A DNA stretch of 64,000 bases, taken from an uncultured delta proteobacterium (GTDB lineage Bacteria; Desulfobacterota; Binatia; Binatales; Binataceae). The stretch covers positions 193,988 to 257,987 of the forward strand of contig CAWBGG010000002.1 of NCBI GenBank assembly GCA_963788205.1, written 5' to 3'. Positions 7,477 through 64,000 of this stretch are shown here, piece by piece. The notes under the pieces are model-generated. The model was not told the origin of the DNA. It searched no databases and saw nothing but the letters and a program-made list of their open reading frames with translations. The position numbers and the translations under genes were made by a program. Every line of letters starts with the position of its first letter. Positions within the stretch are counted from its first letter, which is position 1.

Positions 7477-7647
7477 TGAAAATCCGGGTTTCGGTGCGGG
7501 CCCCAAGGCCGTGTGCGCCGCCATTGTATCGTGCGGTCGGCGAGGTTCAAGTGGGCCTATCATTAAGGCGCCGCCGCGGCCGCGCAACAATCATCAGCCG
7601 GTGCCGGAGATCGATACAATCTGTCGCAAAATCGGGCACTTGGACGG

Positions 7648-10186
<2,539 letters not shown>

Positions 10187-42079: not shown

Positions 42080-44209
42080 GTGACGGTTCTGGGCGTCTAT
42101 CGGCTTGCCCAGTTCCCCAATTTCTACCCGCATGGCCTGGACTGGCGCGGCGCCCTGGAAGGAATCTGGCCGTTGCTGCCTATCACTGGATGGGCGGCCA
42201 TCAGAGTGTCGCTGTTTTGGGGCTGGAGCACGGCGGTAATAGCCGGACTGCTGCTGGCATTCGACCCGGCGCTCGGCCTGTGCGACGCGCTCCTGGCTGG
42301 CGCGGCCGGTCTGTGGTTTCTGGGGGATTTTCTCGGCAACATCTTGGGTCCGCTGGGGCTGTTTCGCGCAGCGCTGATTTGGTTGTTGTTGGCCGCCGGC
42401 ACGCTTTGGCTGTTGCGCCTGCGACCGCGCATCCGCCTGCGCGCCCCTAGCCCGGGACAAAAACTGGCGTTGCTGGCTTTCGCGCTGATGGCGGTTATGA
42501 CCTTGCCGATCCAACTGGGTTCGCCGGTGGTCCCTTGGCACGACGCGCTGGCCTGGCCGTCTTCAGCGCAGCGAATTTTGACTTTCCACACTTATGCGCC
42601 ACTGAACAACGACCCCTACGCGGTGTGGGCCTGGTCCGCGCAGGCGCCGGGAACGGAATTGTTTTATGCGCTGTTGGCGCTCGGCAGTGGCACGCGACTG
42701 GCCGTGCTGGCGGAGAGCGCCGCGATGGTGCCGATGCTGGGGTTGCTGGCTTTTGGCGTGTACCGGCTGGGCCGGGTGCTTTTCGACGACCTTGCAGGCG
42801 GCTTCGCAGCTCTCCTTTTGCTGTTCACGATTTTCCCTAAATGGACACAAAGCATGCGGCCGGGCGTGACCGCCTTCGCGCTAGCCAGTATTGGCCTGGC
42901 CTTCTTTCTCGACAACCGCCGAAGCCGGACCCGCATGGCGATAGGCGCGATGTTGCTCGGGGCTTCCATTCCCTCCCATGCGATCGATGGAGCTATCGGG
43001 ATTGCGGTGGCCGCCTGGGCCGTAGCGATTTGGTCAGCGGCGAAAGATCGATCCCGGGTCCGCGCCGGCATCGGCTGCCTGGCCGGTGCTTTCATGCTCG
43101 GGTCACCGGAGTTCTTCGTTGTGTTCCGCATACCGTTGCCTTACTTAATTCTATTCTTAAGCCAACTTACCGGCGCCGCGGTCATCCTTGGCTCGGTGGG
43201 AACACTCAACGGCGGCTCCGTTCAGGGTTCAACGCTTCCGCGCACACTCGGCCTCGCCGTCTTTGGGGCCCTCGCGCTGGTGCTGCCGCTCGAATCTTGG
43301 CCCACTTTTGCGGCGTTCGCTCCGCTCGGGAATCAGCCAGGGATGCCATTAGCGCTGGCTCAATTGTCGCTGACTCCAATAGTGCTGACGACCTCGGGAG
43401 CGGCCGGGCTCATTTTGCTCGCGCTGAAATTGCGAACCCATCCAAGGGCGCCGGCCTATGCCGTGCTCGCAGCAAGCGTCCTGCTGCTCGGTCCGGTGGC
43501 GAACCTGGTGCTTGGCGTCGTAGCGCCCTACGTTTCAAGCGCCTCCGCAGAGTTTATGCTTTCGCACCCTGCGTTCTATCTCAATCTGTTCTGGTGTCCG
43601 TGCTTTCTGGCCTCAATCGCGGCCTTGCCACTCACCTTGGTCTGGAGCCGGTGGTCCAAATCGATTGCCCTGTTGGTGCTGCTGTCGGCGTGGATCTATC
43701 CCTGGCGCGTGATGGATCCAACCCTTTTTTGGTGGCAACGAGCCCCCCACTCCATGGTTGAGCAGTCGGCCCACAATCTCCAGATCGCCGCCCGCGGCTA
43801 CTTTTTAGATTGTCCGGATCGGCGCTGGAGCCTGAGCCCGGAAGGCTTTGCCGTGGTTGACATTCTGAACCGGGAAATAAGCGCCGGCCGGATCACGATG
43901 GCGACGCACGTCGCTCATGTCCATCTCTTGCCGCCGACGTGGGAATCGCCGGCGGAGTTTGCGCTTTTCACCGGAATTAACGACGACCCGGTCTATAAGG
44001 ACCTCGAACCCAATTTCCCGCTTTTTGCGGGTAGCCGGCAACGGTCAATCGAACAATTCGTCGCCACTCTCGCGGAGGGTGCTCCCTACATCCTCGACGA
44101 GAGAGCCCTGCCGCAGGGAATGATTTACCCGGGCTATGAAGAGATTTTTGACAGCGAGCATCTGCACCTTTTCCGCCGCGTCCCGCCCACTGCCAAAGTC
44201 CCGCACTAA
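42080..44209 (+). CDS. N-terminally truncated tandem paralog of the 37866-41795 membrane protein (corresponds to its residues ~570-1309)
   Basis: 709-aa ORF beginning GTG at 42080 (MTVLGVYRLAQFPNFYPHGLDWRGALEGIWPLLPITGWAAIRVSLFWGW...), colinear with 39640-41795 at roughly 90% identity. The frame is open upstream to a TAG at 41930-41932 with no canonical start, so the true start/expression is uncertain. Confidence 0.55.
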   Translation: MTVLGVYRLAQFPNFYPHGLDWRGALEGIWPLLPITGWAAIRVSLFWGWSTAVIAGLLLAFDPALGLCDALLAGAAGLWFLGDFLGNILGPLGLFRAALIWLLLAAGTLWLLRLRPRIRLRAPSPGQKLALLAFALMAVMTLPIQLGSPVVPWHDALAWPSSAQRILTFHTYAPLNNDPYAVWAWSAQAPGTELFYALLALGSGTRLAVLAESAAMVPMLGLLAFGVYRLGRVLFDDLAGGFAALLLLFTIFPKWTQSMRPGVTAFALASIGLAFFLDNRRSRTRMAIGAMLLGASIPSHAIDGAIGIAVAAWAVAIWSAAKDRSRVRAGIGCLAGAFMLGSPEFFVVFRIPLPYLILFLSQLTGAAVILGSVGTLNGGSVQGSTLPRTLGLAVFGALALVLPLESWPTFAAFAPLGNQPGMPLALAQLSLTPIVLTTSGAAGLILLALKLRTHPRAPAYAVLAASVLLLGPVANLVLGVVAPYVSSASAEFMLSHPAFYLNLFWCPCFLASIAALPLTLVWSRWSKSIALLVLLSAWIYPWRVMDPTLFWWQRAPHSMVEQSAHNLQIAARGYFLDCPDRRWSLSPEGFAVVDILNREISAGRITMATHVAHVHLLPPTWESPAEFALFTGINDDPVYKDLEPNFPLFAGSRQRSIEQFVATLAEGAPYILDERALPQGMIYPGYEEIFDSEHLHLFRRVPPTAKVPH

Positions 44210-47101: not shown

Positions 47102-49249
47102 CTAGCGGATAGCGTAGACGCCGGGCCCGAAGCCCGGGTCACCTCTGAGCTCGGTAAAAGTTTCCGGCGCGCGGTCCATCCAGACCTTTTCCGCCGGAGG
47201 CGGGTCGAGACTCACCACGAAGTCGATGTGATCCCGCTTGAGCCGATCGACCCAGGCCTTGAAGTCGGCGCGCTTTATCAGGTCGCCTGGCGGCCCTCCG
47301 TAGTTCACCACCGAGCCGTCGGCGGTTACGGGTACGTAAACTACCGTGTTCTGAAGATGGCTGCCCAGCAGCGGATACAAATACCAGTTGTCACCGATAC
47401 CGTCCCATCCGGCGGTCACCGCAAGGCGATGGGGTTTGCTGTCATCGAGAAAGGACCAGAGCGACCAGGTCGCGTAATCCGGCGACAGCAGGTGCATGTC
47501 ATAGACCGGATCCCTGATCGCCGCCGCGGCCTGGTAGTAGGGGTAGCGCAGCCTGGATCGGATCCACGGCAGCGTCGTGATCGGCACCAGCACCATCACG
47601 GCGGCCACGATAATCGCGAACCTGCGCCAGGCTTGTCCGCCCAACATCAGGATCAGCGCCACTAACACGGCCGCAACCAGAATCGGCGCCGCCAGTTCGC
47701 CGACGGCCGCGGCGTCGAAGCTGGTAAATCCGGTTGGCAGCGCCAACGCCCCATCGACCAGCAGAACCAGCCACCAGAAACCGAAGATCCAGGCGCTCGT
47801 GAACAAGGCCGCGGCCACGGTCGCCAGCGCAAACACCGGCATCGTGAAACGGCCGAAAGTCAGAAACAGCAGCGTGCGGAACCCTGCCGTCTCGGGCGAG
47901 AACAGGCCTCCCGCCAGAACCAGCGCGATCATGAGAATGAAAAGCATCGCGCCCCTTTTTTCGGGCCGGGCGAAAGTCCTGAGCCAGCCGATTACGCCCA
48001 GGACCAATATCGCGGGAGCCAGGGGACCGAGTCCCAGATAATCAGTCGCGTACAGTTGTGAGAACGGCCAGATGAGATACAGCAGGCCGGGCGTGCTGAG
48101 GTGATGCACCAGCTTGGCGGAGTGAACCATCGACCACTCGCGATTGCCCTTCGACAGCACGCGGCCAAACAGAGTCAGCGGGAGCGGGTAGAAGGGAGAG
48201 CCTTTTTCGAGCCAAATCCGCCAGTAGGAATTCAGGAACAACAGCGTGCCGATCGCACAGGCCGTGAGCGGCACGCCAAACCGTTGCCATCCCGAGCGTT
48301 TCCTGAAAGCGCTCAGAAAGATAAAGCCCCACCCGATCGCCATCTCCGGCATCATCGTGACTTTCACGGCCGTGGCCAGTCCGAGGGCGAGGCCGGCGAG
48401 AGCGGCTTCGGGAATCGTGGGAGCGGCAAAACTTCGTGCAGTGAAGAGCAACGCCAGCAAAAAAAAGGCGAGTCCAATGGTATCGATGTACCCGGCGGTC
48501 AACGCATTGGCGATAGCCGGCGTGAATCCGATCGAGAGCGCCGAGAGCATCGCCAGCTTCTGCGTGGCCCCGAACGTCCGCGCCGCAGCGTATCCGGAAA
48601 GCACCAGACTCAACCAGAACAGCAGGCCGCAGGGCGCCAGGAATTCGCCGTCACTGGCGGCCAGCAGCGGCCAGGACCAGAACGAATCGCCCGCGGCCGG
48701 ATAATATTCGCAGAATCCCCAGGTGTCGGGCGCGGCCTGGACCACGTTGTGGCCCTGCTGGACCCATCGGCCGGCCCTGAACAGGTGATACAGCAAGGCA
48801 TCCCATCCCAGCGGCGGCGCGACCAGGCCGCGCATCACGCGGGCAATCACGATCGCGGTGAGCAGCGCGAGGATGATCGCCGGGGCCAATCGATAGGCAA
48901 ACGCGCGCTGGCCATCGGAAAAGACACTCCGTGTAAAGTCGCGAGCAAGGCCGCGCAGCCGGCGCGCGTCGAGCATCAGGAGTGCGGCCGCATCGCCGGC
49001 GCGCAACGAGAAATGAGCCGCCGCGGCCACAACCAGAATCGACACTAACGCCGGTCCGGGTCCGAACCATCCCAACGCCAGCAGCGCCACGAACGATCCG
49101 TAAAATATCCCGTAGGCCAGCAGCGTCGCACCGGCCAAGCGGGTCGAAGAAGGCGCCTCCGGCAGCATCTGCGCGGCGAGCACATACGAGGACCATCCGC
49201 ATCCGGCCAGCAGCACGAGTGCCTTCGCCAGATTCCAAATGCCGATCAC
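47102..49249 (-). CDS. uncharacterised polytopic membrane protein; paralog of 1072-3201
   Basis: 715 aa. Shares MRGLVAPPLGWDALLYHLFRAGRWVQQG, ...DTWGFCEYYPAAGDSFWSWPLLAASDGEFLAP... and the C-terminal WYLYPLLGSHLQNTVVYVPVTADGSVVNY block with the protein at the other end of the window. Confidence 0.6.
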   Translation of the reverse strand: MIGIWNLAKALVLLAGCGWSSYVLAAQMLPEAPSSTRLAGATLLAYGIFYGSFVALLALGWFGPGPALVSILVVAAAAHFSLRAGDAAALLMLDARRLRGLARDFTRSVFSDGQRAFAYRLAPAIILALLTAIVIARVMRGLVAPPLGWDALLYHLFRAGRWVQQGHNVVQAAPDTWGFCEYYPAAGDSFWSWPLLAASDGEFLAPCGLLFWLSLVLSGYAAARTFGATQKLAMLSALSIGFTPAIANALTAGYIDTIGLAFFLLALLFTARSFAAPTIPEAALAGLALGLATAVKVTMMPEMAIGWGFIFLSAFRKRSGWQRFGVPLTACAIGTLLFLNSYWRIWLEKGSPFYPLPLTLFGRVLSKGNREWSMVHSAKLVHHLSTPGLLYLIWPFSQLYATDYLGLGPLAPAILVLGVIGWLRTFARPEKRGAMLFILMIALVLAGGLFSPETAGFRTLLFLTFGRFTMPVFALATVAAALFTSAWIFGFWWLVLLVDGALALPTGFTSFDAAAVGELAAPILVAAVLVALILMLGGQAWRRFAIIVAAVMVLVPITTLPWIRSRLRYPYYQAAAAIRDPVYDMHLLSPDYATWSLWSFLDDSKPHRLAVTAGWDGIGDNWYLYPLLGSHLQNTVVYVPVTADGSVVNYGGPPGDLIKRADFKAWVDRLKRDHIDFVVSLDPPPAEKVWMDRAPETFTELRGDPGFGPGVYAIR

Positions 49250-51255: not shown

Positions 51256-53355
51256 CTAGTTCCGGTTTAGCTCGCGCTGGATCGCGGCGGCCAGCGCGCG
51301 CAGATTGGGGTCGTCGGGTGAGCTGCTGAGCGCAAGTTCGCACGCGTGGAGAGCCTCCTGGTCGCGGCCCGCGCCGTACAGCGCCTGCGCCATGAAAAAA
51401 AGCGACTGGGGATCGTATGGATCGATGCTCAGCGCGTGCTCGAAGGCCGCGAACGCTTCGTTGTTGCGCCCGCGATCCTTCATCGCTAGGCCGAGCATCA
51501 CCCAGATTTTCGGATCTTCCGGAAAGCGCCGCGCGAGGTCATTCAGAATTGCTTCGGCGGAGTTTTTGTCGCCGTGTCGCCAGTCGATTCGTGATTGAGC
51601 CATCCCCGCCGCCTCGGCGCCCCCGGGCAGCGATGCGGTAAAGTTCAGGACCGCCCGGCTCTTGTCGGCCTGACCTTGCTGGTCGTAAAGTTCGGCCAGC
51701 AGCGCGTATGCAACGGCGGTCGCCGGCTTGGGCCTTTTGCCGGCGCCCTGGCTGTGGCCCACCATCCCGGTCATCTCGCTCAACGACTTTTCAATCTCGC
51801 TCGTGGCCGCCGCAGTCCGTCCCTGCCGCGCGTCGATTTGGCCCAGCGCGTAGAGCGGAGGCGCGCTCGCCATCTCGTCGAGGTCGATGGCTCTTTTGAG
51901 CTCAACCTGCGCGCCGGTCAAGTCGCCGCGTACCTTGAGCGTCATTCCCAGGCGTCCATGACAGAGGGCCGATTCGGGAAAAGCGTCGATACAGCGCTGG
52001 AACAGCACCAGGTCGTCGTGCCAGTAGCCCTGCACATGCCAAAGCGAAAGGCTGAAGCCAGCCAGGACCGCCGCCGCGCCCACGGTTACGATCGAGCGCG
52101 CCGCTTGGCTCCGACGCGCAAGGTTGACCGCCCAATCCGCCAACAGCAGCGACCATCCGACCGACGCCAGGTACAGATAGCGATCGCAGACCAGCAGATC
52201 CGGATGAATCCCGCGCAGGTTCAGCATCGGCACGATCGCAAAGCCCGTCCACGCGGCGCAGAAGGCGTACAGGCGGGCCCGCGGCTGAGCGCGAAGCAGC
52301 GCGAACAGAATCGCCGCGCCGAGGCAAAGCCCCACGATCGGCAGGTAAAATTCGGGTGACGCGGGGCTGAGGACGCGCAGCACGCGATGGGACGGTCCGG
52401 CAAAAAACGGCACGACCAGCAGCCCCGCGTAGTCCGCGACCACGTGGGGCAAAGTCAGAATCGTCTCGGCGGTGTTGGCGAGCGCCTGCGTGTCCGCCCG
52501 ATACGGCATGCTCTCAAAAGGGCTAAGGAAGAATCCGAGCACGATGCGCCGCACGATTAGATAGAGCAGGGCTTCGAGGGCGAAGGGTGCGGCGGCCAGC
52601 ACGGCCTCCCACACCCGTGGCCCGTCCAGATCGTCCGCCAGCTTCTCGGCATGGGGGGATTCAAGCAGCAGAACGTATGATCCGAGCAGCGCGGGGAAAA
52701 TCATCGCGCCGTCATAGCTGAAGACTGCGGCCAGATAGCACAGCAGCGCGGCTGGCGAATGCCGCCGCGCCGGACTGGTCCGGGTGATGAAAAAATAAAA
52801 TGCCGCCAGCTCGAACACGGCGCTCAAGGGAAGCGCCGCGGCCGAGATCCACACCACCGCCTCCGCGTGAATCGGGGTCAAGGCAAACAGCGCCGCGGCG
52901 AGTAGCGCCGCCCACAGATCTCCGGCCAGCCGCAGCGCCACCTTGAAGACCAGCCAGATCGCCAGCAGATGGACCATCAACAGGGTCGCATGCCAGCCCG
53001 CTGGCCCGATCAGAAGATGGCGATGGATCGTGAACCAGACGTCGGTCAGCGGCCGGTAGACCAGGCTCTGCGGCAGCGCGAATGGGTCGCGCATCCAGAA
53101 GAAATCGTAGGCGAACGACTTCCAGAGAAACGACCACTGCGCCATGTAGCGATTAGCTACGATCAGATCTGCGTCGTCGAAGACAAAGCCGTTGCCAAGC
53201 GATCTCAGATAGACCACTGCCGTGACCAGCAGCAGCCCCCCGATCAGCACGCGATCGCGGCCGGGCCCGGACTCGATCGCCCAGCCGGGTGCGCGGACGC
53301 CCTGGCTGGGATCAGCCGGTGGGGCCGAGTTTGCAGGTTTTGCCGCCGATGACAT
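51256..53355 (-). CDS. TMTC-like membrane protein (DUF1736 + TPR), paralog 7
   Basis: 699 aa. ...VVYLRSLGNGFVFDDADLIVANRYMAQWSF...YRPLTDVWFTIHRHLLIGPAGWHATLLMVHLLAIWLVFK... + TPRs (...LGMTLKVRGDLTGAQVELKRAIDL...). Confidence 0.75.
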   Translation of the reverse strand: MSSAAKPANSAPPADPSQGVRAPGWAIESGPGRDRVLIGGLLLVTAVVYLRSLGNGFVFDDADLIVANRYMAQWSFLWKSFAYDFFWMRDPFALPQSLVYRPLTDVWFTIHRHLLIGPAGWHATLLMVHLLAIWLVFKVALRLAGDLWAALLAAALFALTPIHAEAVVWISAAALPLSAVFELAAFYFFITRTSPARRHSPAALLCYLAAVFSYDGAMIFPALLGSYVLLLESPHAEKLADDLDGPRVWEAVLAAAPFALEALLYLIVRRIVLGFFLSPFESMPYRADTQALANTAETILTLPHVVADYAGLLVVPFFAGPSHRVLRVLSPASPEFYLPIVGLCLGAAILFALLRAQPRARLYAFCAAWTGFAIVPMLNLRGIHPDLLVCDRYLYLASVGWSLLLADWAVNLARRSQAARSIVTVGAAAVLAGFSLSLWHVQGYWHDDLVLFQRCIDAFPESALCHGRLGMTLKVRGDLTGAQVELKRAIDLDEMASAPPLYALGQIDARQGRTAAATSEIEKSLSEMTGMVGHSQGAGKRPKPATAVAYALLAELYDQQGQADKSRAVLNFTASLPGGAEAAGMAQSRIDWRHGDKNSAEAILNDLARRFPEDPKIWVMLGLAMKDRGRNNEAFAAFEHALSIDPYDPQSLFFMAQALYGAGRDQEALHACELALSSSPDDPNLRALAAAIQRELNRN

Positions 53356-53859: not shown

Positions 53860-55788
53860 ATGACACGACACCCGAGAGTGTGGTTTGGGCTCGCAACGGT
53901 CGCGTGTATTCTTTTTTTGGTAATCTTTTACCCGTCGCAACGCGCCGATAATTCAGTTTCGCCGCGCGTGGCGAACGCCAAGCGGATCAGCTCCAGCTCA
54001 TCGGGGCAACTCGGGAAGGCGCCTGCGGCCAACACCGCGGTCGTCAGCGCGCGTCTCAACCAGAGCTACGATCAACTCGGCTTGGGCTTCGAGCCCAACG
54101 TAGGTCAGGCCGACGGCCGGGTGAGATTTCGCGCCCGCGCCGAGGGTCTGTCCATTTCGTTCACGCAGGACGCGGCCCGGATTCTGCTCAGCCGTGCTCC
54201 ATCCCCGGCCCAAGCCGCGCGGACGCTTCCAATTGGCGACGGTGTAACCGCAAGCAATTCGAAGCATGACTCAAAATCAGGGGTTCTGCGGCCTGCGGAC
54301 AACCTGGCCCTGACGATGAGACTCGAAGGCGCGAACAAAGATGCGAAAATCGAGGGCGTAGACAGGCTTCCCGGCGTGACCAACTATTTCGTCGGCAGTG
54401 ATCCCCGCAATTGGCACTCCGGCATCCCGACGTATTCCAAGGTGAGATACAAAGGCGTCTACCCCGGCGTCGATCTGGTCTACTACGGCAACCATCGCGA
54501 ATTGGAATGCGACTGGGTAGTCAAGCCCGGCGCACGTCCGGACAGCATAAGGCTCGCTTTCGACGGCGCCAGCCGGATTGACATCAACGGCGATGGCGAT
54601 CTGGTACTGGGCACGCCACGCGGGCAAATCCTGCTGCGCAAACCGGTTGCCTACCAGGAATCGGGCGGCAAGAAGCGGCCGATCTCCAGCCGCTATACTC
54701 GTCTGTCCGGCGCGCGCGTCGGCATCGAGCTGGCTGCTTACGATCGTGACCAGCCGTTGGTTATCGACCCGACGCTGAGCTACTCGACTTACCTGGGCGG
54801 CTCGTTCCTCGATTTCGCGAGCGGACTGGCGGCCGACGCAGTCGGCGATGCCTACGTGACCGGAACCGCCTGCTCGGCGGATTTTCCGATTACCCCAAAA
54901 CCGAACATCGTGCAGGCCACTTATGGTGGAAGTTGCGATGTGTTCGTAGCCAAGGTCAATCCGACCGGGACCGCGTTTGTGTATTCTACCTACCTCGGCG
55001 GTCCCAGCGCCGACAGTGGCAACGCGATCGCGGTCGATCAGTCCGGCGCTGCTTACATAACCGGATACGCGGGCTCCGGCTTTCCGCTTACGCCAGCGGG
55101 CGGTTCGGTCGCGCAGCCGAATTTCGGCGGCGGAACTTCGGACGCGTTCGTGGCCAAGATCAGTCCGGATGGCTCGACGTTGTTGTATTCCACCTACCTG
55201 GGTGGCAGCGGAGTCGACGAGGGCGAAGCGATCGCAATTCCCTCGGGATGCGCGGCGAACTGCGACGCGTTCGTCACCGGATATACCGAGTCTTTGGACT
55301 TTCCAGTTGCTGCGGCGCCCAACCTGACCCCCTTCCAGACGGCCAACGGTTGTACCAGCGGCGGCGCGCCTTGTATCGATAAAAACGACGCGTTCGTGGC
55401 GAGGCTGAATTCTTCGGGTAGTGTCTTCAAGTACGCCACCTACCTGGGTGGACACAGCGGCGACGGCGGATTCGCGATCGCAGCTGACGCGCAAGGCAAC
55501 GCCTATGTCGGCGGCATAACCGACGCGATCCTCATTCCGGCCTTCTCACAGAATTTCCCGATCACACCCGCGACCGCGGTGCAGAACACCTTCGGCCAAG
55601 CCGCCGCCACCGGTTTCATCGCAGTACTCAATCCGACCGGCACCGGGCCGCTGTTGTACTCGACCTACCTGGGCGGAACGGGCTTTCAGGCCATCAATGG
55701 TCTGGAGTCTGGGGCCGGATACTTTTGTGCTGACCCCCAATCTCAGCGTGAACAGCATCTATGTCGCGGGCTATGCCTACTCGAATGA
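53860..55788 (+). CDS. giant secreted beta-propeller/BNR protein, N-terminal portion (reading frame broken at ~55711-55714; continues in 55697-58498)
   Basis: Signal peptide [29 protein letters not shown]. Repeated units of the form YSTYLGG-x-x-D-x-G-x-AIAVD--GNAYVTGYT-S-DFP-T (SBBP-type beta-propeller repeats) at least 6 times. The ORF ends in a stop-free GC-rich shadow frame after ...[20 protein letters not shown]. Confidence 0.65.
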
Positions 55789-58498
55789 TTTCCCGACTAC
55801 TGCCGGCGCCTACCAGGTGGCTTTCGGCGGCTTCGATGACGAGTTCGTCGTGCACCTGGTACCGCAGAACAACCCGACCCTCCCTGGCGTGCCGTATTAC
55901 ACGATCGCTTATTCCACCTACCTGGGCGGCACCGGCGATGACAACGGCGGATTAATCGCGATCGACGCGACCTGCGGCGTGGTGGGTTGTGATACCTATA
56001 TTGCCGGCACCACCAATTACACCGATTTTCCGGCGGTGAATTCGTTTCCTCTGCCCGCGCCCAACGGCGAATTGCTGGTCAGCACCGACAACGGCGCGAG
56101 CTTCGGCTTCACCGGCAATCTCGGCAGCATCGGCTCACTCAATGCGCTGGTGGTCGATCCAAGCACCACACCCCATACCATCTTCGCCGGCAGCGCGCGC
56201 AAGGGCCTGTACCTGAGCACCGATGATGGCCACACCTTCGGACCCACCGTGCTTTCGCAGGCGCAGTATGCGACCGGGTTTAATGGTATCGCGATCGACT
56301 ACTCGCCCGGCACCGGCGTGTGCGCCGGCAGCAACGAAAGAGTATTCGTCGGCAATGGGCAGGGGCTGTACCGCAGCACCGATCGGGGCGTGTCGTTCGC
56401 TCAGACCGCACTCAACGGCTTCCCGGTCTCGCCGGTATTCGTCGATAGCAACGCGGAGCCGCCCGCCATCTACGTGGGAACCAAGACTCCGGGCAACCCT
56501 CCGCAGTTTCAACTGCTGAGGAGCGCCGATTGCGCCAACACCTTCGACCCCACCGGGCTTCCGAGCGGCGCCTTCGCCTTTTCGTTGGCTTCTGATCCGA
56601 ACCATAACCCTGAAGCGGTCTATGTCGGCACCAATCGCGGTGTCTTCGTCAGCAGTGTCGGGGGCATACAGTTCACCCAGACCGGAGAGAATTTTCAGCC
56701 TGCGTTCTCAGTGGCGGTCGACTCCAGTGTGAAAAATCCGGCTCCGCCGGGAAGTACCAGTCCCAACTCCAACCTGTACGCGGGCGCTCAAGTCGGACTG
56801 CTCGAAAGCACCGACGGGTTCGCTACGGTCACCGGTCCGGTCAACACAGTCAGCCTCGCCCTCTATGACGTGAAGGTTGATGCTTCGTCCTCCCCTTCGC
56901 ATATCTATGCGGCGGGCAAGCTCAACGATCTGGGCTTTCTGCTGCAAAGCACCGACGGCGGCACGACCTTCAGGGAGATCGGCCCGGCCACGGCCTACCT
57001 GCCGCCGACGACCAGGATCGGTTTGGATCCAGGAGTGACTACCGGAATTGGCTCGGTTACGGGAATCTTTATCAGCCCGTTCCTGGAATATAACGCCACC
57101 GTCGCCAAGCTGAGCGGAGACGGATCGACCCTGATCTTCTCCACGCTGCTGGGTCCATTGAGCGGAGCAGCGAACGATGGCTTCGCCGGCGGCGTAGCGA
57201 CCGACACCCTCGCCGCAACCGGCATCAATCTGGTCTATGTAGCGGGCGGGACCGCCTCGAGTAATTTTCCAGTCGTACCGGCTCCGCCGGCGGTACCGTC
57301 TGCCGCGCAGCCGGCGCTGGCAGGTTCGCTCAACGCGTACGTGCTCCAGATCGGGCTCAACTTTCCAACCCCGACCCCAACCCCAAGCCCGACCCCAACG
57401 CCGACGCCGACCCCTACGCCCACGCCTTCGGAGAGCCCGTCCGCGACGCCGTCGCCAACGCCGAGCGCGAGTCCGACCGCGGCACCGACCTCGTCGGCTA
57501 CCACAACCCCGTCGCCCACCCCAGGTCCGACGGTCACCCCCAGCGGACCCACGCAAACACCTAGCCCCTCACCGACTCCGGTAGGGCCCACTCAGACTCC
57601 GATCAGCGCGACGGCCACGGTCACTCCGACTCCGAGTGGGCCAACTCAGACTCCGATTAGCGCGACGGCCACGGTCACTCCGACTCCGATTGGACCGACG
57701 GCAAGTCCAAGCGGTCCCACCCAGACCCCGGCGCCAACTACTGCAACTGCGACTCCGGTGGCCACCGCTTCGCCTGGCATCGATACTGTGGCGGTTACTC
57801 CGGTGTCGATTACCGCCTCTCCGGGTGCGACGCCGGTGGTCGGGACCTTCTCGGTCACCAGCCCCAGCACAAACTGTCAGCAGAGCCTGACGGACGCGTT
57901 CGTGCTCTTCGGCGACGCGTCATTGTTCACTTCGTCGACGCTGACGGCAACGATCAACGGCGCCAGCGAGACCTCCACGCAGGTTCCGTCTTCGACCGGC
58001 AACACCGACTACAGCTTCAGCCCGCCGATCATCATCCCGCCCGGCGGCACCGTCGACTTCAGCTTGCAGGTCACGATCGCGGCCAACCCAAGCGCGTCGC
58101 TGGCTATGGCCAACCCGCCGCGGCTGGTGCTCGCCGGGATGATCCCGGTTCCCAAGGCGGGCGGGCAGATGGCCGGCCCGATGATGGTATGGCTGGGATG
58201 CCTGGGGATACTCGGCTTGGTAGTGCCGCTCTCGTCGCCGCGCCGCAAACGAGTGCTGATGGCGAGCGCGATGCTGATACTGGTCGCCGCGACGGTGTCG
58301 TGCGACCTGCCCAAGAGCAGCGGTCCATCCAAGCCGTCGAAGACCTCGGCGCCGACCTCGGCTCCAACGCAGAAGCCGACCCCCACGCCGCTGTCTTCCG
58401 ATCAGACCCTGGAAGGGTTCGCGGCCACCGACTGTGTCGGTATGGTAACGTTCACACCTGAAGTGCAAGATTTGGGAACGGTCACGATCAGCAAGTAG
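55697..58498 (+). CDS. giant secreted beta-propeller/BNR protein, C-terminal portion with BNR/Asp-box repeats, Pro/Thr/Ser-rich linker and C-terminal hydrophobic segment
   Basis: Continuation ...[35 protein letters not shown] (same SBBP repeat). Then Asp-box-like [41 protein letters not shown]. Then ~140 aa of [14 protein letters not shown]...[18 protein letters not shown]... Ends with hydrophobic [24 protein letters not shown] and a [15 protein letters not shown] lipobox-like segment. Confidence 0.65.
57358..57790 (+). repeat. low-complexity Pro/Thr/Ser-rich linker-coding region inside the giant secreted protein gene
   Basis: ccgaccccaaccccaagcccgaccccaacgccgacgccgacccctacgccc... encodes [77 protein letters not shown]... 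Confidence 0.7.
57585..57692 (+). repeat. perfect-register 54-nt tandem repeat x2 (encodes [19 protein letters not shown])
   Basis: gggcccactcagactccgatcagcgcgacggccacggtcactccgactccgagt followed immediately by gggccaactcagactccgattagcgcgacggccacggtcactccgactccgatt (4 mismatches in 54). Confidence 0.8.
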
Positions 58499-58650: not shown

Positions 58651-60663
58651 CTAATGCGGCTTGGCGCTCTGTTCGATTTCCGTTATCAGCGCCAGCGTGC
58701 GCGAATCATTGGGCGAAGCGGCCAGCGCGAGGTAGCATTCGTCGAGCGCCTCGCGATTACGGTTCATCGCATGAAGCACCTCGGCGGAGAGAAAATGCGG
58801 CATCGGGGCGTCGGGTGTAAGCTTGACCGCCGCTTGGTACGCGGCTAGCGCTTCGGGGTTGCGTCCTTGTGCGGCGAGCGCCCGCCCCAGCGCGGTCCAC
58901 ACGAGGTAGTCATCGGGATGGCTGCGCGCCATCTCGCGCAACATCGCCTCGGCGCCGGCGGCGTCACCATGGGATACTTTTATCTGCGCCCGCGTGAGTC
59001 CGGCGGCCTCGGCGCCGCCCGGCATCGATTCGGCATACGCCAGTTCCGCATCGCGGCGCGCGTCGTCGTGGTTCAAGTCGTAGACCTGCGCCAGCAGCAG
59101 ATGGTTCTCGGCGGCGGGATGCGGCAGATGCCTGATGCCGGCGGCAAGCTCGGCGGCGCCGTCGGCGAGCCGGCCCATCCGCAGGTGCAGAAGTCCGAGA
59201 TCATACAGCGTAAAGGGCGCGTTGGGATCAAGGCTCAGCGAGGTCGCGAGCTGCTGCGCCGCCGCGGATAGCTCGCCGCGTTGCTCGAGCGCACTGGCGA
59301 GCCGGTTGTGCCACATCGCGGCATCGGGACAGCGCGCGATACAGGCGATCGAGAGCGCTTCGTCGTCGTGCCAGAATCCCTGCGCCCGCCAGAGCGCTCC
59401 CGCATACAGGGCCGCCATTGCGATCGCGGCACTCACCGCAAGCCGGCGCGAGGTGGCGCCACGCCGCGCGAGGCGAAACCCGCCGTCGGCAAGTATCACA
59501 CACCATCCCAGCGATGACAGGTAGAGATAACGATCCTGCACCAGCGCCTGCTCAAAGAGCCCGCGCAGATTCATCATCGGCGCGACCGCGACTACCATCC
59601 AGGCGGCGCAAAACAAGTAGAGCCGCCCGCGCCGGTCGCGTCTGGCAATCGCGAACAGGATCGCGCCGCAGGCGGCCAGCGCGGCGAGCGGCAGATAGAA
59701 GCCGGGCGCGCCGAGGCTCCCGACGATCGGCACCTGATGGGCCGGGCCGGCCAGCCACGGCATCACCAGCAGCGCCACGTAGGTCATCACCACGCGCGGC
59801 GCAGTCGCGATCGCCTGCGTGCCGGTCAAATGGGTCAGAGCGTTGGGGCGATTGATGAAACCGAGCACCAGCCGGCGCACAGTCAGATAGGCCAGGGTCT
59901 CGGCCGCGAACGGCGCCGAACTGACGATCGCGGTCCGTACTCGCCGCGCGCGCGGTGAAACGACTTGTCCGGGCTCGATCAGCAGGACGTACAATCCGAT
60001 CAGCGCCGGAAATGCGACCGCGCTCTCGTGGGTCAGAAGGGCGCAGGCGTAGAGCAGTATCGCGAGCGTCCAGTTGCGACGCTCGGCTCCGCCGCGCGCG
60101 ATGAAGAGATAGAACGCTCCCAGTTCGAGCGTGGCGCTGAGCGGCAGCGGGATCGCGGTGGCCCACACCACCGCCTCAGCGTGCACCGGCAGCAGGCCGA
60201 AGAGTAACGCGGCCGCCAGCGCCGGCTGTGTCCCGCCGGTGAGCCGGGCCGCGATCTCGAACACCAGCCATACCGCGGCCAGATGCAAACCGACCATAGT
60301 CGCGTGCCATCCGGCGACGTGGGGTCCGAACAGATGGTAATGCAGGCCGAGCCAGATATCCTGGAGCGGCCGATAGTATGCGCTCGCCGGCAAATGGAGC
60401 GGATCCATGAACCACCATGAATCACGCGTCAGCGACTTCCAGAGGAACGACCACTGCCCGATCTGCCGGTTGGCGATCACCATGTCGTGGTCGTCGAAAA
60501 CGAAGCCGTTGCCTAGGCATCGCAGATAGACCAACGCCGTGGCGAGCAGCACGCCTGTGATCATCAAGGTTCGGCGGCGCGCGTCCTCGCGGGCATTGGC
60601 AGCGCGGCCAGCGACGCGACTTCGACCAGGTGCGCCCGCTTTGACCGGCAGCCCGCGCTTCAT
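58651..60663 (-). CDS. TMTC-like membrane protein (DUF1736 + TPR), paralog 8
   Basis: Start chosen at MKRGLPVKAG (ATG 60663-60661, forming an ATGA overlap with the stop of the upstream paralog); the ORF extends to 60765. ...LVYLRCLGNGFVFDDHDMVIANRQIGQWSF...YRPLQDIWLGLHYHLFGPHVAGWHATMVGLHLAAVWLVFE...LLTHESAVAFPALIGLYVLL... + TPRs. Confidence 0.75.
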   Translation of the reverse strand: MKRGLPVKAGAPGRSRVAGRAANAREDARRRTLMITGVLLATALVYLRCLGNGFVFDDHDMVIANRQIGQWSFLWKSLTRDSWWFMDPLHLPASAYYRPLQDIWLGLHYHLFGPHVAGWHATMVGLHLAAVWLVFEIAARLTGGTQPALAAALLFGLLPVHAEAVVWATAIPLPLSATLELGAFYLFIARGGAERRNWTLAILLYACALLTHESAVAFPALIGLYVLLIEPGQVVSPRARRVRTAIVSSAPFAAETLAYLTVRRLVLGFINRPNALTHLTGTQAIATAPRVVMTYVALLVMPWLAGPAHQVPIVGSLGAPGFYLPLAALAACGAILFAIARRDRRGRLYLFCAAWMVVAVAPMMNLRGLFEQALVQDRYLYLSSLGWCVILADGGFRLARRGATSRRLAVSAAIAMAALYAGALWRAQGFWHDDEALSIACIARCPDAAMWHNRLASALEQRGELSAAAQQLATSLSLDPNAPFTLYDLGLLHLRMGRLADGAAELAAGIRHLPHPAAENHLLLAQVYDLNHDDARRDAELAYAESMPGGAEAAGLTRAQIKVSHGDAAGAEAMLREMARSHPDDYLVWTALGRALAAQGRNPEALAAYQAAVKLTPDAPMPHFLSAEVLHAMNRNREALDECYLALAASPNDSRTLALITEIEQSAKPH

Positions 60664-62741
60664 CGCGCACCCGCAGATTGTCCCGAGTGCGCCTCGCGCT
60701 GGATGGTGGCGATCAGCGCCTGCGCGTTGCGGTCGTTGGGCGCGATCGCCAGTGCGGCGCGGCATTGCGTAAGCGCCTCCTGATCGCGCCCCAACTTGTG
60801 CAGCGCCAGGCCCGTCATCACGCGCGCGAATGGATCACGGGGCGACAGCGCCTGCGCTCGCAGGAAGCAGTCCAGCGCTTGCTGGTGGTTCTTCTCCCTG
60901 ATCGCGGTCATCCCCAGCATCGTCCACGCGCGCGGATCGTTTGGATCGTTCGCGGTGAGGTCGCGCAAAATCGCTTCCGCGCCCGGCAGATCGCCGTGAT
61001 TATATTTCAACTGCGCACGCGCCAGCGCCGCGACGTGCGCGCCGCCCGGCAGCGACTCGGCCTGCTTGAGCGCCGCCTCGGACTTGGCCTGGTCGCCAGT
61101 CAGATCGTAAACCTGGGCCAGGCCGACGTAGGCGTCGGCAGGCGGACTGGCAAGCCGCTTGAGCCCCTCCTCCTGTTCGGCTGCGGCCTGCTTGATATGG
61201 CCGAGCTGGGAATCGACTACGCCCAGGTCGTAGAGCGCGGCGCTCTGGGGATCGAGCTCTAGCGCGGCCTTGAACTCGCGCTGCGCGCCCGCCAGATCGC
61301 TGCGGTCTCTTAATGCCACGCCCAACCCGTAATAGCCGTCCACCTGGTCCGGGCTTTTTTCGATCAGCGCGGCATAGAAGGCCTCGTTGTCGCGCCAGGA
61401 ATACTGAACCTGCCAGAGCACGGCTGTGCAGACGATCAGGAACGCGGCGGTGGCGGCCCACACGATGCGCCTTATTATTTTGGATCGGTCCGCAAGACTT
61501 ACCGCAAAGTCCGCAACCATCAAGCACCATCCGACCGACGCGAAGTAGAGATAGCGGTCCTGCACAAACGCTCGATCGAAAAAGAGTCGAAGATTCACGA
61601 CCGGCGCCATCGCCACCGCTATCCATGCTGCAAAGAATAGGTAGCGGCGGCGATGGGGATGGTTGCGCACGGCGGCCGCAAACGCGGCGGCCAGCACGAG
61701 CACGATCGCAACCGGACCCCAGAAGTGCGGCGATGACGCGCTGGATACCGTCAGCATCGCGCGGCGAGGGCCGGCCAGCCACGGCATCGCGAGCAGCGCG
61801 ATGTATCCAACGATCACCCGCGGGAGGGTCAGGATCGTCAGCGCTGGCGTCAGGTGGGTGATCCACCCCGGCTGATGAAACAGAAACCCCAGCGACAACC
61901 TGCGAGCGATCAGATATCCGATCGCATCGCCCACAAACGGCACGGCGCAAATCAGGCTGCGGCGCAAGCGGGCGAGAATAGTATCGAGCTTGCCCTCCCA
62001 ACTCGCGGGCGCGCCGAGCGGCTCGATCAAAAATACGTAGAGGGCTATCAGGGCCGGGAAGAGCACGGCCGCTTCGTGAGTCAGGAGCGCGGCCGTGTAG
62101 AACAGTAGCGCGGGAAGCCAGCGCGTGGTGCTGGTGGATCGTGTGATGAAGAAATAAAACGCCGCGAGTTCGAGCACACCGCTCAGCGACATGTCAACCC
62201 CGGGCTCCCAGGCCACAGCCTCGGCGTGGAGGGGAATCAGCCCGAAGAGCAGGGCCGCCAAAGCCGCGATGCGGACGTCATCCGCCACCTGCATCGCGAT
62301 CTTGAACACGAACCAGACGCCGACCAGATGCAACAGCACGAGGCTCAAGTGCCAGGGCATGGGGTTGAGACCGAACAGATGAAACTGTATCGCAAGCCAA
62401 ATGTCCTGCAGCGGCCGGTAATACGAACTCTGCGGCAGATGCGCGGGATCGCGATACCAATACGGATCGCTCAGCAGCGATCTCCAGATGAACGACCACT
62501 GGCCGATGAGGCGGTTGCCGACGATCATGTCGAGATCGTCGAGGGAAAAGCGATTGCCCAGGCTTCTCAAATAGGCGCAGAAGGTGACCAACAGCACCCC
62601 ACCCGCTATGGCAGACTCGCGCCATCCACCGAAACCGGCGCTGACGCCTGCCGCGCTTGCGGGCGCAGGAGCCTTGATCGAAACGACCCGCCTCATCAGA
62701 CCGCTAACATTCGGGCGTTTCGCTGCCGCCGGCGCGGCCAA
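60660..62741 (-). CDS. TMTC-like membrane protein (DUF1736 + TPR), paralog 9
   Basis: 693 aa. ...FCAYLRSLGNRFSLDDLDMIVGNRLIGQWSF...YRPLQDIWLAIQFHLFGLNPMPWHLSLVLLHLVGVWFVFK...LLTHEAAVLFPALIALYVFL... + TPRs (...YYGLGVALRDRSDLAGAQREFKAALELDP...). Confidence 0.75.
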   Translation of the reverse strand: MAAPAAAKRPNVSGLMRRVVSIKAPAPASAAGVSAGFGGWRESAIAGGVLLVTFCAYLRSLGNRFSLDDLDMIVGNRLIGQWSFIWRSLLSDPYWYRDPAHLPQSSYYRPLQDIWLAIQFHLFGLNPMPWHLSLVLLHLVGVWFVFKIAMQVADDVRIAALAALLFGLIPLHAEAVAWEPGVDMSLSGVLELAAFYFFITRSTSTTRWLPALLFYTAALLTHEAAVLFPALIALYVFLIEPLGAPASWEGKLDTILARLRRSLICAVPFVGDAIGYLIARRLSLGFLFHQPGWITHLTPALTILTLPRVIVGYIALLAMPWLAGPRRAMLTVSSASSPHFWGPVAIVLVLAAAFAAAVRNHPHRRRYLFFAAWIAVAMAPVVNLRLFFDRAFVQDRYLYFASVGWCLMVADFAVSLADRSKIIRRIVWAATAAFLIVCTAVLWQVQYSWRDNEAFYAALIEKSPDQVDGYYGLGVALRDRSDLAGAQREFKAALELDPQSAALYDLGVVDSQLGHIKQAAAEQEEGLKRLASPPADAYVGLAQVYDLTGDQAKSEAALKQAESLPGGAHVAALARAQLKYNHGDLPGAEAILRDLTANDPNDPRAWTMLGMTAIREKNHQQALDCFLRAQALSPRDPFARVMTGLALHKLGRDQEALTQCRAALAIAPNDRNAQALIATIQREAHSGQSAGAR

Positions 62742-62781: not shown

Positions 62782-64000
62782 TCACCTCACTACAATCCTG
62801 TAGGCTATGCTGCCGTCCGGATAACGGATCACTACCTTGGGCGGAGCCGGAACGACGTCATCACCGGTGAAAACAAAAATGCCGTGGGGAAACACCCGCA
62901 CCAACGCGCCGGCGGCATTTTTCGCTATCGCCTCGTAAACCACGAAGGGGGAAACAAAGTAGTGCCGGCCGAAGCTTTTGATCACTTGACCCCTGAACCA
63001 CGCCCCCTTTACGTCAGCCGCGGTCTGAAACCATTTCGGAGGATACTGTTCGAAGACCAACATGTAGATATAGGCCTCGCTTATTCTCGGCGTGACAACC
63101 AGAACCTCCTTGCCGTCGTCGAGCCGCTTGATCTGCCTGGCAACTTCTCCCGCTCCATACTGAAAATATGGCGCCGACATCATTACGTAGTCGCCGAAAT
63201 ATGTTTTGCAAAACCGCGCGCTATGGAATATCACACCGGCCAGCAGCAGCGCCGCTGCGGCGCTCATGAGTAATACTCTTTTACGCAGCAACTCGAGCAG
63301 CGCGACAAATCCCAGCGCCGACACCAGGGTCCACGGCGCCATCGCCAGGGCGTCGTGCCGGGAGTCGGGGTGTGACATAAGCACTGCCGGCGACAAATCA
63401 GGGTTAACCGCGACGCGTGAGTAATCGCACAAAATAGACGCCGTAGGAATGTCAGTCTTTTCGAGCGCGAACGCTCCCAGCGGCACGGTGAGCATCGCCG
63501 GCAGCGCCGCGCATATCAGCCAGCCGAAAGTGAGTAGCGCAAACTTGCGGCGCCGGACGTTGAAAAAGGCCAGCGCTGCCAGCAATATCAAAGGCGCTTG
63601 TTCGGGCAGAAGCTGCCCGAAACCGGCCGGATGGAGCATCGTCCAATGGTCGCCCCGGTCACCGCGAAAAAACAGGAACGACGGTGTGAAATAGCTTATG
63701 AAGTTGGCGCCGAGGCTCTCGAGCCGCGCGCCCTTTGTTCCCAAGATCGAAATCACGCTGAAACGCTGCTGCATTTCAGGGTGCTTCCAGATTAAGATCG
63801 CCTGCGGCAAGGCCAGCAAGGCCACAATGGCCAACGCCAGCAGTGCGGTGCGCCTGTGGCCGTTAAGTTCGCGCCAGTAGGTCAGGATCAGCACCCCGAT
63901 CATGGGTGGCAAAAATGCCTTCACTATCGCGTAGCTATACAGCGATACGCCGAAGATTATTGCACTTAGTAGAAGCCATCGGTCCCGCCGCCACTTGAGC
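62782..64000 (-). CDS. GT39/PMT-like GT-C glycosyltransferase, C-terminal part (gene continues beyond window end); paralog of 21414-23162
   Basis: Reverse-strand frame open to the window edge. ...LALAIVALLALPQAILIWKHPEMQQRFSVISILG... is colinear with the 21414 protein (...LGLVALMAVPQAVLILRHPELQARFHILYLFD...), and the C-terminal VFTGDDVVPAPPKVVIRYPDGSIAYRIVVR matches VYPGIEVLPAPAAITVRYPDGRLAFSIIVK. Confidence 0.6.
   Translation of the reverse strand, partial: LKWRRDRWLLLSAIIFGVSLYSYAIVKAFLPPMIGVLILTYWRELNGHRRTALLALAIVALLALPQAILIWKHPEMQQRFSVISILGTKGARLESLGANFISYFTPSFLFFRGDRGDHWTMLHPAGFGQLLPEQAPLILLAALAFFNVRRRKFALLTFGWLICAALPAMLTVPLGAFALEKTDIPTASILCDYSRVAVNPDLSPAVLMSHPDSRHDALAMAPWTLVSALGFVALLELLRKRVLLMSAAAALLLAGVIFHSARFCKTYFGDYVMMSAPYFQYGAGEVARQIKRLDDGKEVLVVTPRISEAYIYMLVFEQYPPKWFQTAADVKGAWFRGQVIKSFGRHYFVSPFVVYEAIAKNAAGALVRVFPHGIFVFTGDDVVPAPPKVVIRYPDGSIAYRIVVR

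Follow-up and report, generated by a model that had tools for sequence, protein, structure and literature searches.

A DUF7948-SBBP propeller protein with a predicted lipo-invert-type C-terminal anchor in a GT-C gene island of an uncultured Binataceae bacterium

Proteins in which an N-terminal signal is followed by a DUF7948 domain (PF25778) and an SBBP propeller (PF06739) are found in Acidobacteriota, Thermoanaerobaculia and others; there are at least 7998 database matches at E ≤ 1e-5, and their C-terminal parts vary widely, unlike the shared N-terminal cassette. Here we describe a gene with this cassette at 53860-58498 (+) of a 64,000-nucleotide stretch of DNA, hereafter the window, from an uncultured delta proteobacterium of the GTDB family Binataceae (GenBank assembly GCA_963788205.1, contig CAWBGG010000002.1, positions 193,988 to 257,987 of the forward strand). 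With a probability of roughly 70%, the locus is one gene broken by a consensus error and encodes, in this soil bacterium, an exported cell-envelope propeller protein with a C-terminal anchor module. Judged by sequence, the product is a new member of the DUF7948-SBBP surface-protein family with a predicted lipo-invert-type C-terminal anchor that scores below threshold. It is an ordinary large surface protein, of a kind common in soil bacteria, with an uncharacterised anchor. The combination of an Asp-box insertion, a Pro/Thr (PT)-rich linker and a hairpin/lipobox was found only in a small clade (P0001-5, P0007, P0109, P0257 and P0259; database proteins are given P numbers and genomic loci L numbers).

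Among described systems, the lipo-invert putative C-terminal anchoring domain (NF058595.1 'invert_tail', NCBIfam release 20) has the same layout as residues 1440-1545 of the protein, namely a transmembrane (TM) helix, an Arg cluster, a TM helix with a lipobox Cys, and a tail; the window protein differs by a score under the curated cut-off of 37. Classical lipoprotein signal peptides (Lgt/LspA/Lnt; PROSITE PS51257-type) share with the module a positive n-region, a core of about 15 residues, Gly, Ser or Ala at position -1, the Cys itself and, as predicted here, an N-in/C-out orientation. They are N-terminal, whereas the Cys in question is residue 1481 of 1545, follows a predicted stop-transfer helix and lies about 45-65 residues from the C-terminus, and cleavage here would leave only a short tail as the 'mature lipoprotein'. 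MYXO-CTERM/myxosortase (PMC11980579), PEP-CTERM and GlyGly-CTERM are likewise C-terminal tags with an invariant Cys, a TM helix, an Arg-rich stretch and predicted lipidation, carried by many unrelated surface proteins. In MYXO-CTERM the Cys motif comes first, then the TM helix and the Arg-rich end, in contrast to TM helix, Arg cluster, TM helix, Cys and about 64 more residues here; 81 residues (1465-1545) follow the Arg cluster, unlike in tripartite sorting signals, which end in theirs. No NCBIfam sorting-signal model (PEP-, MYXO-, GlyGly-CTERM) matched at E ≤ 0.01, and no dedicated sortase gene was seen near the examined loci. A literature search returned no paper on, or experimental characterisation of, the lipo-invert domain, and nothing relevant on SBBP function.

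One gene across the frameshift

The sequence as given contains two overlapping open reading frames (ORFs). The N-terminal part of the gene lies in ORF1 (53860-55788, +; frame 1, listed with 642 aa) and the C-terminal part in ORF2 (55697-58498, +; frame 2, listed with 933 aa); the coordinates had been given correctly in the preliminary description of this DNA, as had the union of both ORFs in one protein of about 1540 aa. Residues of ORF1 past about 55705-55714 are out-of-frame read-through, and the position of the ORF2 ATG (55697) within an SBBP blade shows that it is not a genuine start. Deletion of one G of 55711-55714 gives a single ORF of 1545 aa with zero internal stops. P0001, an unbroken ortholog of 1484 aa and 72% identity identified among 5.8 billion proteins, passes the junction without a change of frame and is colinear with the merged protein along the whole length, and the locus of the merged gene is syntenic with L001. 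Against the L001 ortholog, dN/dS (Nei-Gojobori) was 0.21 before the break and 0.225 after it, with values of 0.15-0.24 for all structured segments; both halves are under the same purifying selection, and there is no sign of decay. For the merged protein, a chance ORF is ruled out on sequence grounds by overwhelming Pfam and ortholog homology. We conclude that 53860-58498 (+) is one real gene, to be annotated as a single ORF.

Stop codons alone permit a frame switch anywhere in 55520-55786, and homology to orthologs narrows the extra base to 55705-55714 (+), in SBBP blade 5. Within this interval, codon comparison with L001/L004 and L005 gave two candidates, GAGT at 55705-55708 and GGGG at 55711-55714. 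The junction reads ...FQAINGLALGPDNSIYADGY... in P0001, P0003 and P0004, LALGPNNDIFADGY in P0002, and ASGY in P0005. At this place frame 1 of the window reads INGL, the last conserved codon being CTG at 55702-55704, and frame 2 reads LGPD, with CTG at 55709-55711; GAGT occupies the place of one Ala codon, GCC, in L004 and L005. The correction adopted earlier, in which a G is taken from GGGG to give INGLESGPD, is also length-neutral, and puts Ser at a beta-strand position held by Leu in five orthologs and by Val in P0007 (43% identity). Codon comparison slightly favours the non-homopolymeric GAGT as the error site, and the placement in GGGG is not established. That a GGGG run falls inside the interval carries no weight, since such runs are expected by chance (519 homopolymer runs of at least 4 bases in the window, about one per 123 nt).

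A blade loop contains an in-frame insertion of 30 nt (55721-55750, +), which follows the frameshift at a distance of 12 nt. It is specific to the window and missing from all five orthologs compared. A duplicated origin of this insertion was rejected, no similar copy being found elsewhere in the window. That one insertion of 31 nt produced the frameshift was rejected as well: CTGGGGCCGGAT, which stands between the +1 site and the insertion, aligns with the orthologs at 9 of 12 positions, and the two differences are therefore separate.

The extra base is most likely an assembly indel, plausibly generated from a strain-variable 30-nt indel in the read pile-up, because the nearest relatives are metagenome-assembled genomes (MAGs) made from Nanopore reads only, with many split genes. 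Among 185,579 GTDB species representatives, orthologs were found in three MFD MAGs only, labelled uncultured delta proteobacterium, the label that NCBI gives to relatives of the propeller protein. MFD MAGs are Nanopore-only assemblies with one round of Medaka (PMC12313526). On the contig of P0007, trpC (indole-3-glycerol-phosphate synthase) and trpF (phosphoribosylanthranilate isomerase) are each split into two called genes (L002, 1874-3315), a sign of technical indels in this series of assemblies; P0002, P0004 and P0005 have out-of-frame tails within their PT-coding linker repeats. Splits that hit different TMTC-like paralogs in the window and in L001 are counted among these technical breaks. 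The break had earlier been counted as the fourth frameshift in the window; three split genes were verified, and a fourth was not identified.

Propellers and the C-terminal module

Following MTRHPR, a hydrophobic segment (residues 7-24; 53878-53931, +) was detected by hydropathy and would be a signal peptide or else a signal anchor. Its earlier naming as a signal peptide holds as far as the hydrophobic segment goes, and the segment could be an uncleaved anchor. Cys16 was rejected as a true N-terminal lipobox, since it sits in the middle of the helix and P0007 and P0109 lack it. DUF7948, missed previously, spans residues 77-305 (54088-54774, +) and matched its full profile (1-214) with 209.5 bits (E 8e-62) against a gathering score of 27. 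Six SBBP blades follow (residues 306-735; 54775-56065, +), with YSTYLGG motifs at residues 308, 375, 443, 525, 600 and 684, then an Asp-box propeller (residues 736-1075; 56066-57085, +), and then a seventh SBBP blade (residues 1076-1166; 57086-57358, +) with FSTLLG at 1093. The claim of at least six SBBP repeats is borne out by seven YSTYLGG-type motifs, of which six precede the Asp-box region and one follows it, and by a PF06739 match of 57.3 bits in three stretches (gathering score 20.5). Of the five Asp-box/BNR-like repeats reported before, the region stands and the number does not: seven motifs of the type S-x-D-x-G-x-[ST]-F lie at residues 741-1037, starting at 741, 786, 839, 888, 931, 983 and 1030 with a spacing of about 50 residues, four of them canonical (STD.G..F) and three degenerate.

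The order of the repeats suggests that the Asp-box propeller interrupts the SBBP propeller between blades 6 and 7, and the same SBBP/Asp-box/SBBP interleaving occurs in P0106 and P0118. GH74, Sortilin-Vps10 and Ycf48-type propellers have the same seven Asp-box motifs at about 50-residue spacing, and the double-propeller core predicted here may be GH74-like; the likeness is limited by low TM-scores and by family hidden Markov models (HMMs) that all score under their cut-offs. BNR (PF02012), which had been suggested as a domain check, had no match at E ≤ 0.01 in the merged protein, and Sortilin-Vps10 (19.7 bits, cut-off 33) and F510_1955 (NF045728; 57.8 bits, cut-off 175) remained under threshold. 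An AlphaFold model of residues 296-1170 was all-beta (mean predicted local distance difference test, pLDDT, 76; predicted TM-score, pTM, 0.74). With this model, the best Foldseek match was CylK (E 1e-19), through the SBBP/NHL-like propeller, and GH74 xyloglucanases followed at E of about 6e-14 with TM-scores of 0.24-0.30 on the two-domain model. No catalytic assignment is justified for the propellers. At L006 (7820-12940 and 14663-20439), the locus of a 42% ortholog, a second, more distant Asp-box/SBBP paralog follows on the same strand after a few kb.

The propellers are followed by a Pro/Thr/Ser linker of 139 aa (residues 1167-1305; 57359-57775, +), consistent with the length of about 140 aa first given, in which 42 residues are Pro, 42 Thr and 19 Ser. 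Its DNA contains tandem repeats of 6/18 bp at 57365-57426 and of 54 bp (2.3 copies, 92% match) at 57572-57693. Such linker repeat DNA is a hot spot of indel errors in related assemblies, where P0002, P0004 and P0005 switch frame inside the linker. When orthologs were compared, as had been proposed, a long linker was present in P0001 and P0007 and missing in the more distant P0109.

The conserved C-terminal module starts with a beta-sandwich (Ig-like) domain of six strands (residues 1306-1420; 57776-58120, +; pLDDT 62-80). After a Gly-rich stretch comes TM1 (residues 1440-1457; 58178-58231, +), then an RRKR cluster (residues 1461-1464; 58241-58252, +), which would form the cytoplasmic loop and the n-region of an internal signal, and TM2 (residues 1465-1481; 58253-58303, +), which ends in the lipobox-like TVSC, with Cys1481 encoded at 58301-58303 and Asp as the next residue. 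A short PT linker (residues 1482-1511) and a conserved tail of 34 aa (residues 1512-1545) complete the protein (58304-58495, +). The hydrophobic C-terminal segment and its lipobox-like element, already recognised before, are both present and conserved; the beta-sandwich, the two-helix hairpin and the conserved tail had been missed. P0001, P0121 and P0122 have retained both the hairpin and the tail, and in P0109 the module is present at 30% identity, with PRR, the Cys-Asp pair and the tail motif invariant. On the contig of P0007, a small ORF after that gene (L002, 13899-14411) matches positions 83-232 of the module profile with E 7e-30; P0007 thus has the hairpin/lipobox module at its end as well, detached by a further frameshift. 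Within the locus of the 66% ortholog (L005, 8294-13166), no hairpin/lipobox module was detectable; a 578-aa ORF lies in another frame (11433-13166) after the propeller ORF, and the C-terminus at L005 either differs or has been garbled by indels.

Among 1.84 billion cluster representatives, a profile built from the 240 C-terminal residues matched at least 178 proteins at E ≤ 1e-3, 68 of them at E ≤ 1e-10. The 150 best matches were aligned with hmmalign without motif pre-selection, and 124 of these span the hairpin. In the 124 sequences the lipobox position is Cys in 118 (95%), the residue at -1 is mostly Gly (103 sequences), less often Ser (10) or Ala (8), and an RRR(R) cluster lies 17 residues upstream of the Cys with about 15 hydrophobic residues between them. 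When 118 of the 150 best matches were selected by motif, the Cys was about 29-72 residues from the C-terminus, mostly 40-56, and the tail consensus SSTQxVxA...G..VxVxGLPxxLGTI closed most of them. The passengers are mutually unrelated (pro-kumamolisin/sedolisin peptidases, Sortilin/BNR propellers, NHL, SBBP/DUF7948, thaumatin and Kelch proteins), and a PT-rich linker usually stands in front of the module. No Pfam model matched the module. NF058595 gave 17.7 bits with a 240-aa query of the window protein and 19.6 bits with a 133-aa query (E 9e-4 to 3e-3), aligned over profile positions 19-90 of 113, or 25-109 for P0246. It matched 26 of 32 and 23 of 51 relatives, with best E-values of 5.6e-8 and 1.7e-6, and none of the 83 reached its cut-off. 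By these alignments, the module is a divergent branch of the curator-recognised lipo-invert domain.

The protein is more likely membrane-tethered than secreted, that is, it would be exported and membrane-anchored; the label 'secreted' in the preliminary description is doubtful given the conserved two-helix membrane hairpin and a possibly uncleaved N-terminal anchor. In the mechanism we propose, the passenger would be exported by Sec through the N-terminal signal, TM1 would stop transfer so that RRKR stays cytoplasmic according to the positive-inside rule, and TM2 would re-export the tail in an N-in/C-out orientation. As this is the orientation of a type II signal peptide, Cys1481 could be diacylglycerylated by Lgt, and possibly cut by LspA. 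The protein would thereby be anchored at its C-terminus by a lipid, the hairpin or both, as implied by the name 'lipo-invert', with the propellers carried on a long flexible stalk as a putative binding or glycan-acting surface module. An internal start for a separate small lipoprotein was considered and rejected, no Shine-Dalgarno-like sequence being found before the GTG/ATG codons at 58217-58271.

The surrounding GT-C island

The gene is flanked upstream (51256-53355, -) and downstream (58651-60765, -) by genes for proteins with a TMTC-like GT-C membrane domain and tetratricopeptide repeats (TPRs), and a further TMTC-like paralog lies at 60660-62741 (-). The window holds nine such paralogs with GT-C domain and TPRs, 35-48% identical among themselves, the other six being at 3217-5562 (-), 15820-17954 (-), 25510-27528 (-), 27879-30242 (+), 31774-33763 (+) and 33798-35816 (-); the family has many copies per genome, and single large contigs elsewhere hold seven or more. 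Two of the nine are split by a frameshift each (17196-17954 and 15820-17238, -; 31774-32868 and 32375-33763, +), with shift sites (~17196-17238 and ~32380-32395) away from long homopolymers, and the paralogs split in L001 are different ones.

Like TMTC1-4 of the GT-C/PMT clan, the neighbours have a multi-pass N-terminal domain, a C-terminal TPR domain and the motifs DD, YRP and ERxxY as defined in Table 4 of PMC7801869. In six aligned paralogs D60, D61, Y100, R101 and P102 are invariant, YRP following DD at a distance of 40 residues as in TMTC1, and DRYLY, of which D391, Y393 and L394 are invariant, resembles ERxxY with E replaced by D. They differ from TMTC1-4 in that DUF1736 was not detected in the paralogs, PMT_2 was matched by only one of six (E 8e-5), and a PDB sequence search with a profile of the neighbours' membrane domain returned no match. 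Comparison of this profile by hhalign with the window's own PMT_2 protein likewise gave nothing significant. Some homologs carry PF13231; homologs go under the name 'protein O-mannosyl-transferase' at JGI, and NCBI places homologs in Candidatus Binataceae. On these sequence features, which agree with the first assignment of the neighbours as GT-C proteins, they are credible GT-C enzymes of TMTC type.

Further membrane proteins with weak PMT_2/YfhO matches (E 1e-4 to 1e-8), and their paralogs, are encoded at 21414-23162 (-), 47102-49249 (-), 35941-37554 (+), 23167-25467 (-), 1072-3201 (+) and 62782-63924 (-), by which the island would hold other putative GT-C-type enzymes beside the TMTC-like ones. 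Two fusions of a GT2 glycosyltransferase with an S-adenosylmethionine-dependent methyltransferase (MT), at 6163-7590 (-) and 8633-10186 (-), have opposite domain order (GT2-MT and MT-GT2). Two tandem paralogs at 37866-41795 (+) and 42080-44209 (+), residues 586-1289 of the 1309-aa protein being 83.6% identical to the whole 709-aa next one, had no Pfam or NCBIfam match.

Alternative explanations and significance

Several points weigh against an intact gene for an exported, C-terminally anchored propeller protein. The extra base is present in the sequence as given, and the adjacent 30-nt insertion shows that genuine local change has taken place in the lineage; the nested arrangement of the propellers is derived from repeat order and from P0106/P0118, not from coordinates; the literature gave no precedent for lipidation of an internal lipobox, here 1481 residues from the N-terminus; an AF2 model of the C-terminal module, built with five sequences, was uninformative (pLDDT 50); and the NF058595 scores of 17.7-19.6 bits are under the curated cut-off. 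The first two of these would suit a real frameshift, which would make the locus either a recent pseudogene or a source of a truncated, exported fragment of 617 aa (DUF7948 and 4.5 SBBP blades) with the downstream part unmade; local mutational activity just 12 nt from the break, and two split TMTC-like paralogs in the same window that would fit relaxed selection in a redundant island, speak for it. We regard it as unlikely, given that dN/dS is low and equal on both sides of a break that falls inside a propeller blade, that ORF2 would have no export signal, that housekeeping trpC and trpF are broken by technical indels in the related L002 assembly, and that the related MAGs are Nanopore-only. 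Programmed ribosomal frameshifting, to which two long ORFs overlapping where the sequence is rich in G might point, is negligible because the orthologs are all in one frame here with different nucleotides; no slippery heptamer is conserved, and a correction of -1 nt would need a +1 shift, for which no known signal is present at the site. A consensus error in a single gene accordingly remains our preferred reading of the break.

For the C-terminal end, the hairpin might be merely a two-helix membrane anchor, with the conserved Cys serving a disulfide or helix packing and never lipidated. Lgt and LspA act on N-terminal signal peptides; the window protein has Thr and Val at positions -3 and -2 in place of the classic L-[AS], and no literature on internal lipoboxes was found. 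We nonetheless consider an anchor of this kind rather improbable beside a lipidated one, since the whole type II geometry is conserved over 124 divergent sequences, with RRR(R), a core of about 15 residues, Gly, Ser or Ala at -1 and Cys in 95%, and the name 'lipo-invert' chosen by NCBI curators expresses the same interpretation. A further proposal concerns the linker, which would be O-glycosylated by the flanking TMTC-like GT-C enzymes with the protein as their dedicated acceptor. Pmt-type enzymes favour Ser/Thr/Pro-rich regions, and the protein is the sole PT-rich one among 33 large ORFs (≥200 aa) scanned in the window. Three TMTC-like genes bracket the gene, the order GT-C/propeller/GT-C/GT-C is kept in L001/L004 at about 75% nucleotide identity, and a PMT_2 gene adjoins the ortholog P0007 in L002; by the topology given in PMC7801869, the enzymes' TPR domains would face the periplasm, as would the substrate, and Pmt-type O-mannosylation is described as widespread in prokaryotes, for example in Actinobacteria (bioRxiv 10.1101/2023.08.23.554508). 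Against this, no TMTC-like ORF lies within 10 kb in L005 (66%), the adjacency is also absent in L006, L003 and L084, L002 has a different PMT_2 gene in place of the TMTC-like neighbours, other module-bearing proteins (L086, L087) are without such neighbours, and the long linker is missing in P0109. With nine TMTC-like copies in 64 kb and many per genome, chance adjacency is likely, and the characterised eukaryotic TMTCs modify folded cadherin domains, not mucin-like linkers (PMC11292533, PMC7001481). The idea, put forward in the preliminary description, is doubtful and stays a conjecture, because the adjacency behind it is kept just in the closest relative (L001/L004). Lipidation of the Cys combined with glycosylation of the linker would give a working 'inverted lipoprotein' sorting device, which is more speculative still: TM2 would act as an internal type II signal, Lgt would lipidate the Cys and LspA cut before it, and the lipidated tail of about 45-65 residues would stay on the beta-sandwich, for example by strand donation, so that unrelated passengers (propellers, sedolisin peptidases, NHL, Kelch) would be C-terminally lipid-anchored, with outer-membrane trafficking possible and the PT stalk glycosylated by the TMTC-like enzymes.

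The gene call itself is of little weight beyond the merging of both ORFs by annotators, and the value of the locus lies in the anchor and in its place in the GT-C island, not in the frameshift or the linker. For the dense TMTC-like island, the protein is a convenient first candidate acceptor and no more. NF058595, the only curated model, under-detects the module family, leaving this protein and its relatives under threshold. The wider point of the finding is the recurrence of the module behind very different passengers in at least 178 clusters; if its Cys is lipidated, the module would represent a new route by which diderm bacteria anchor proteins at the C-terminus.

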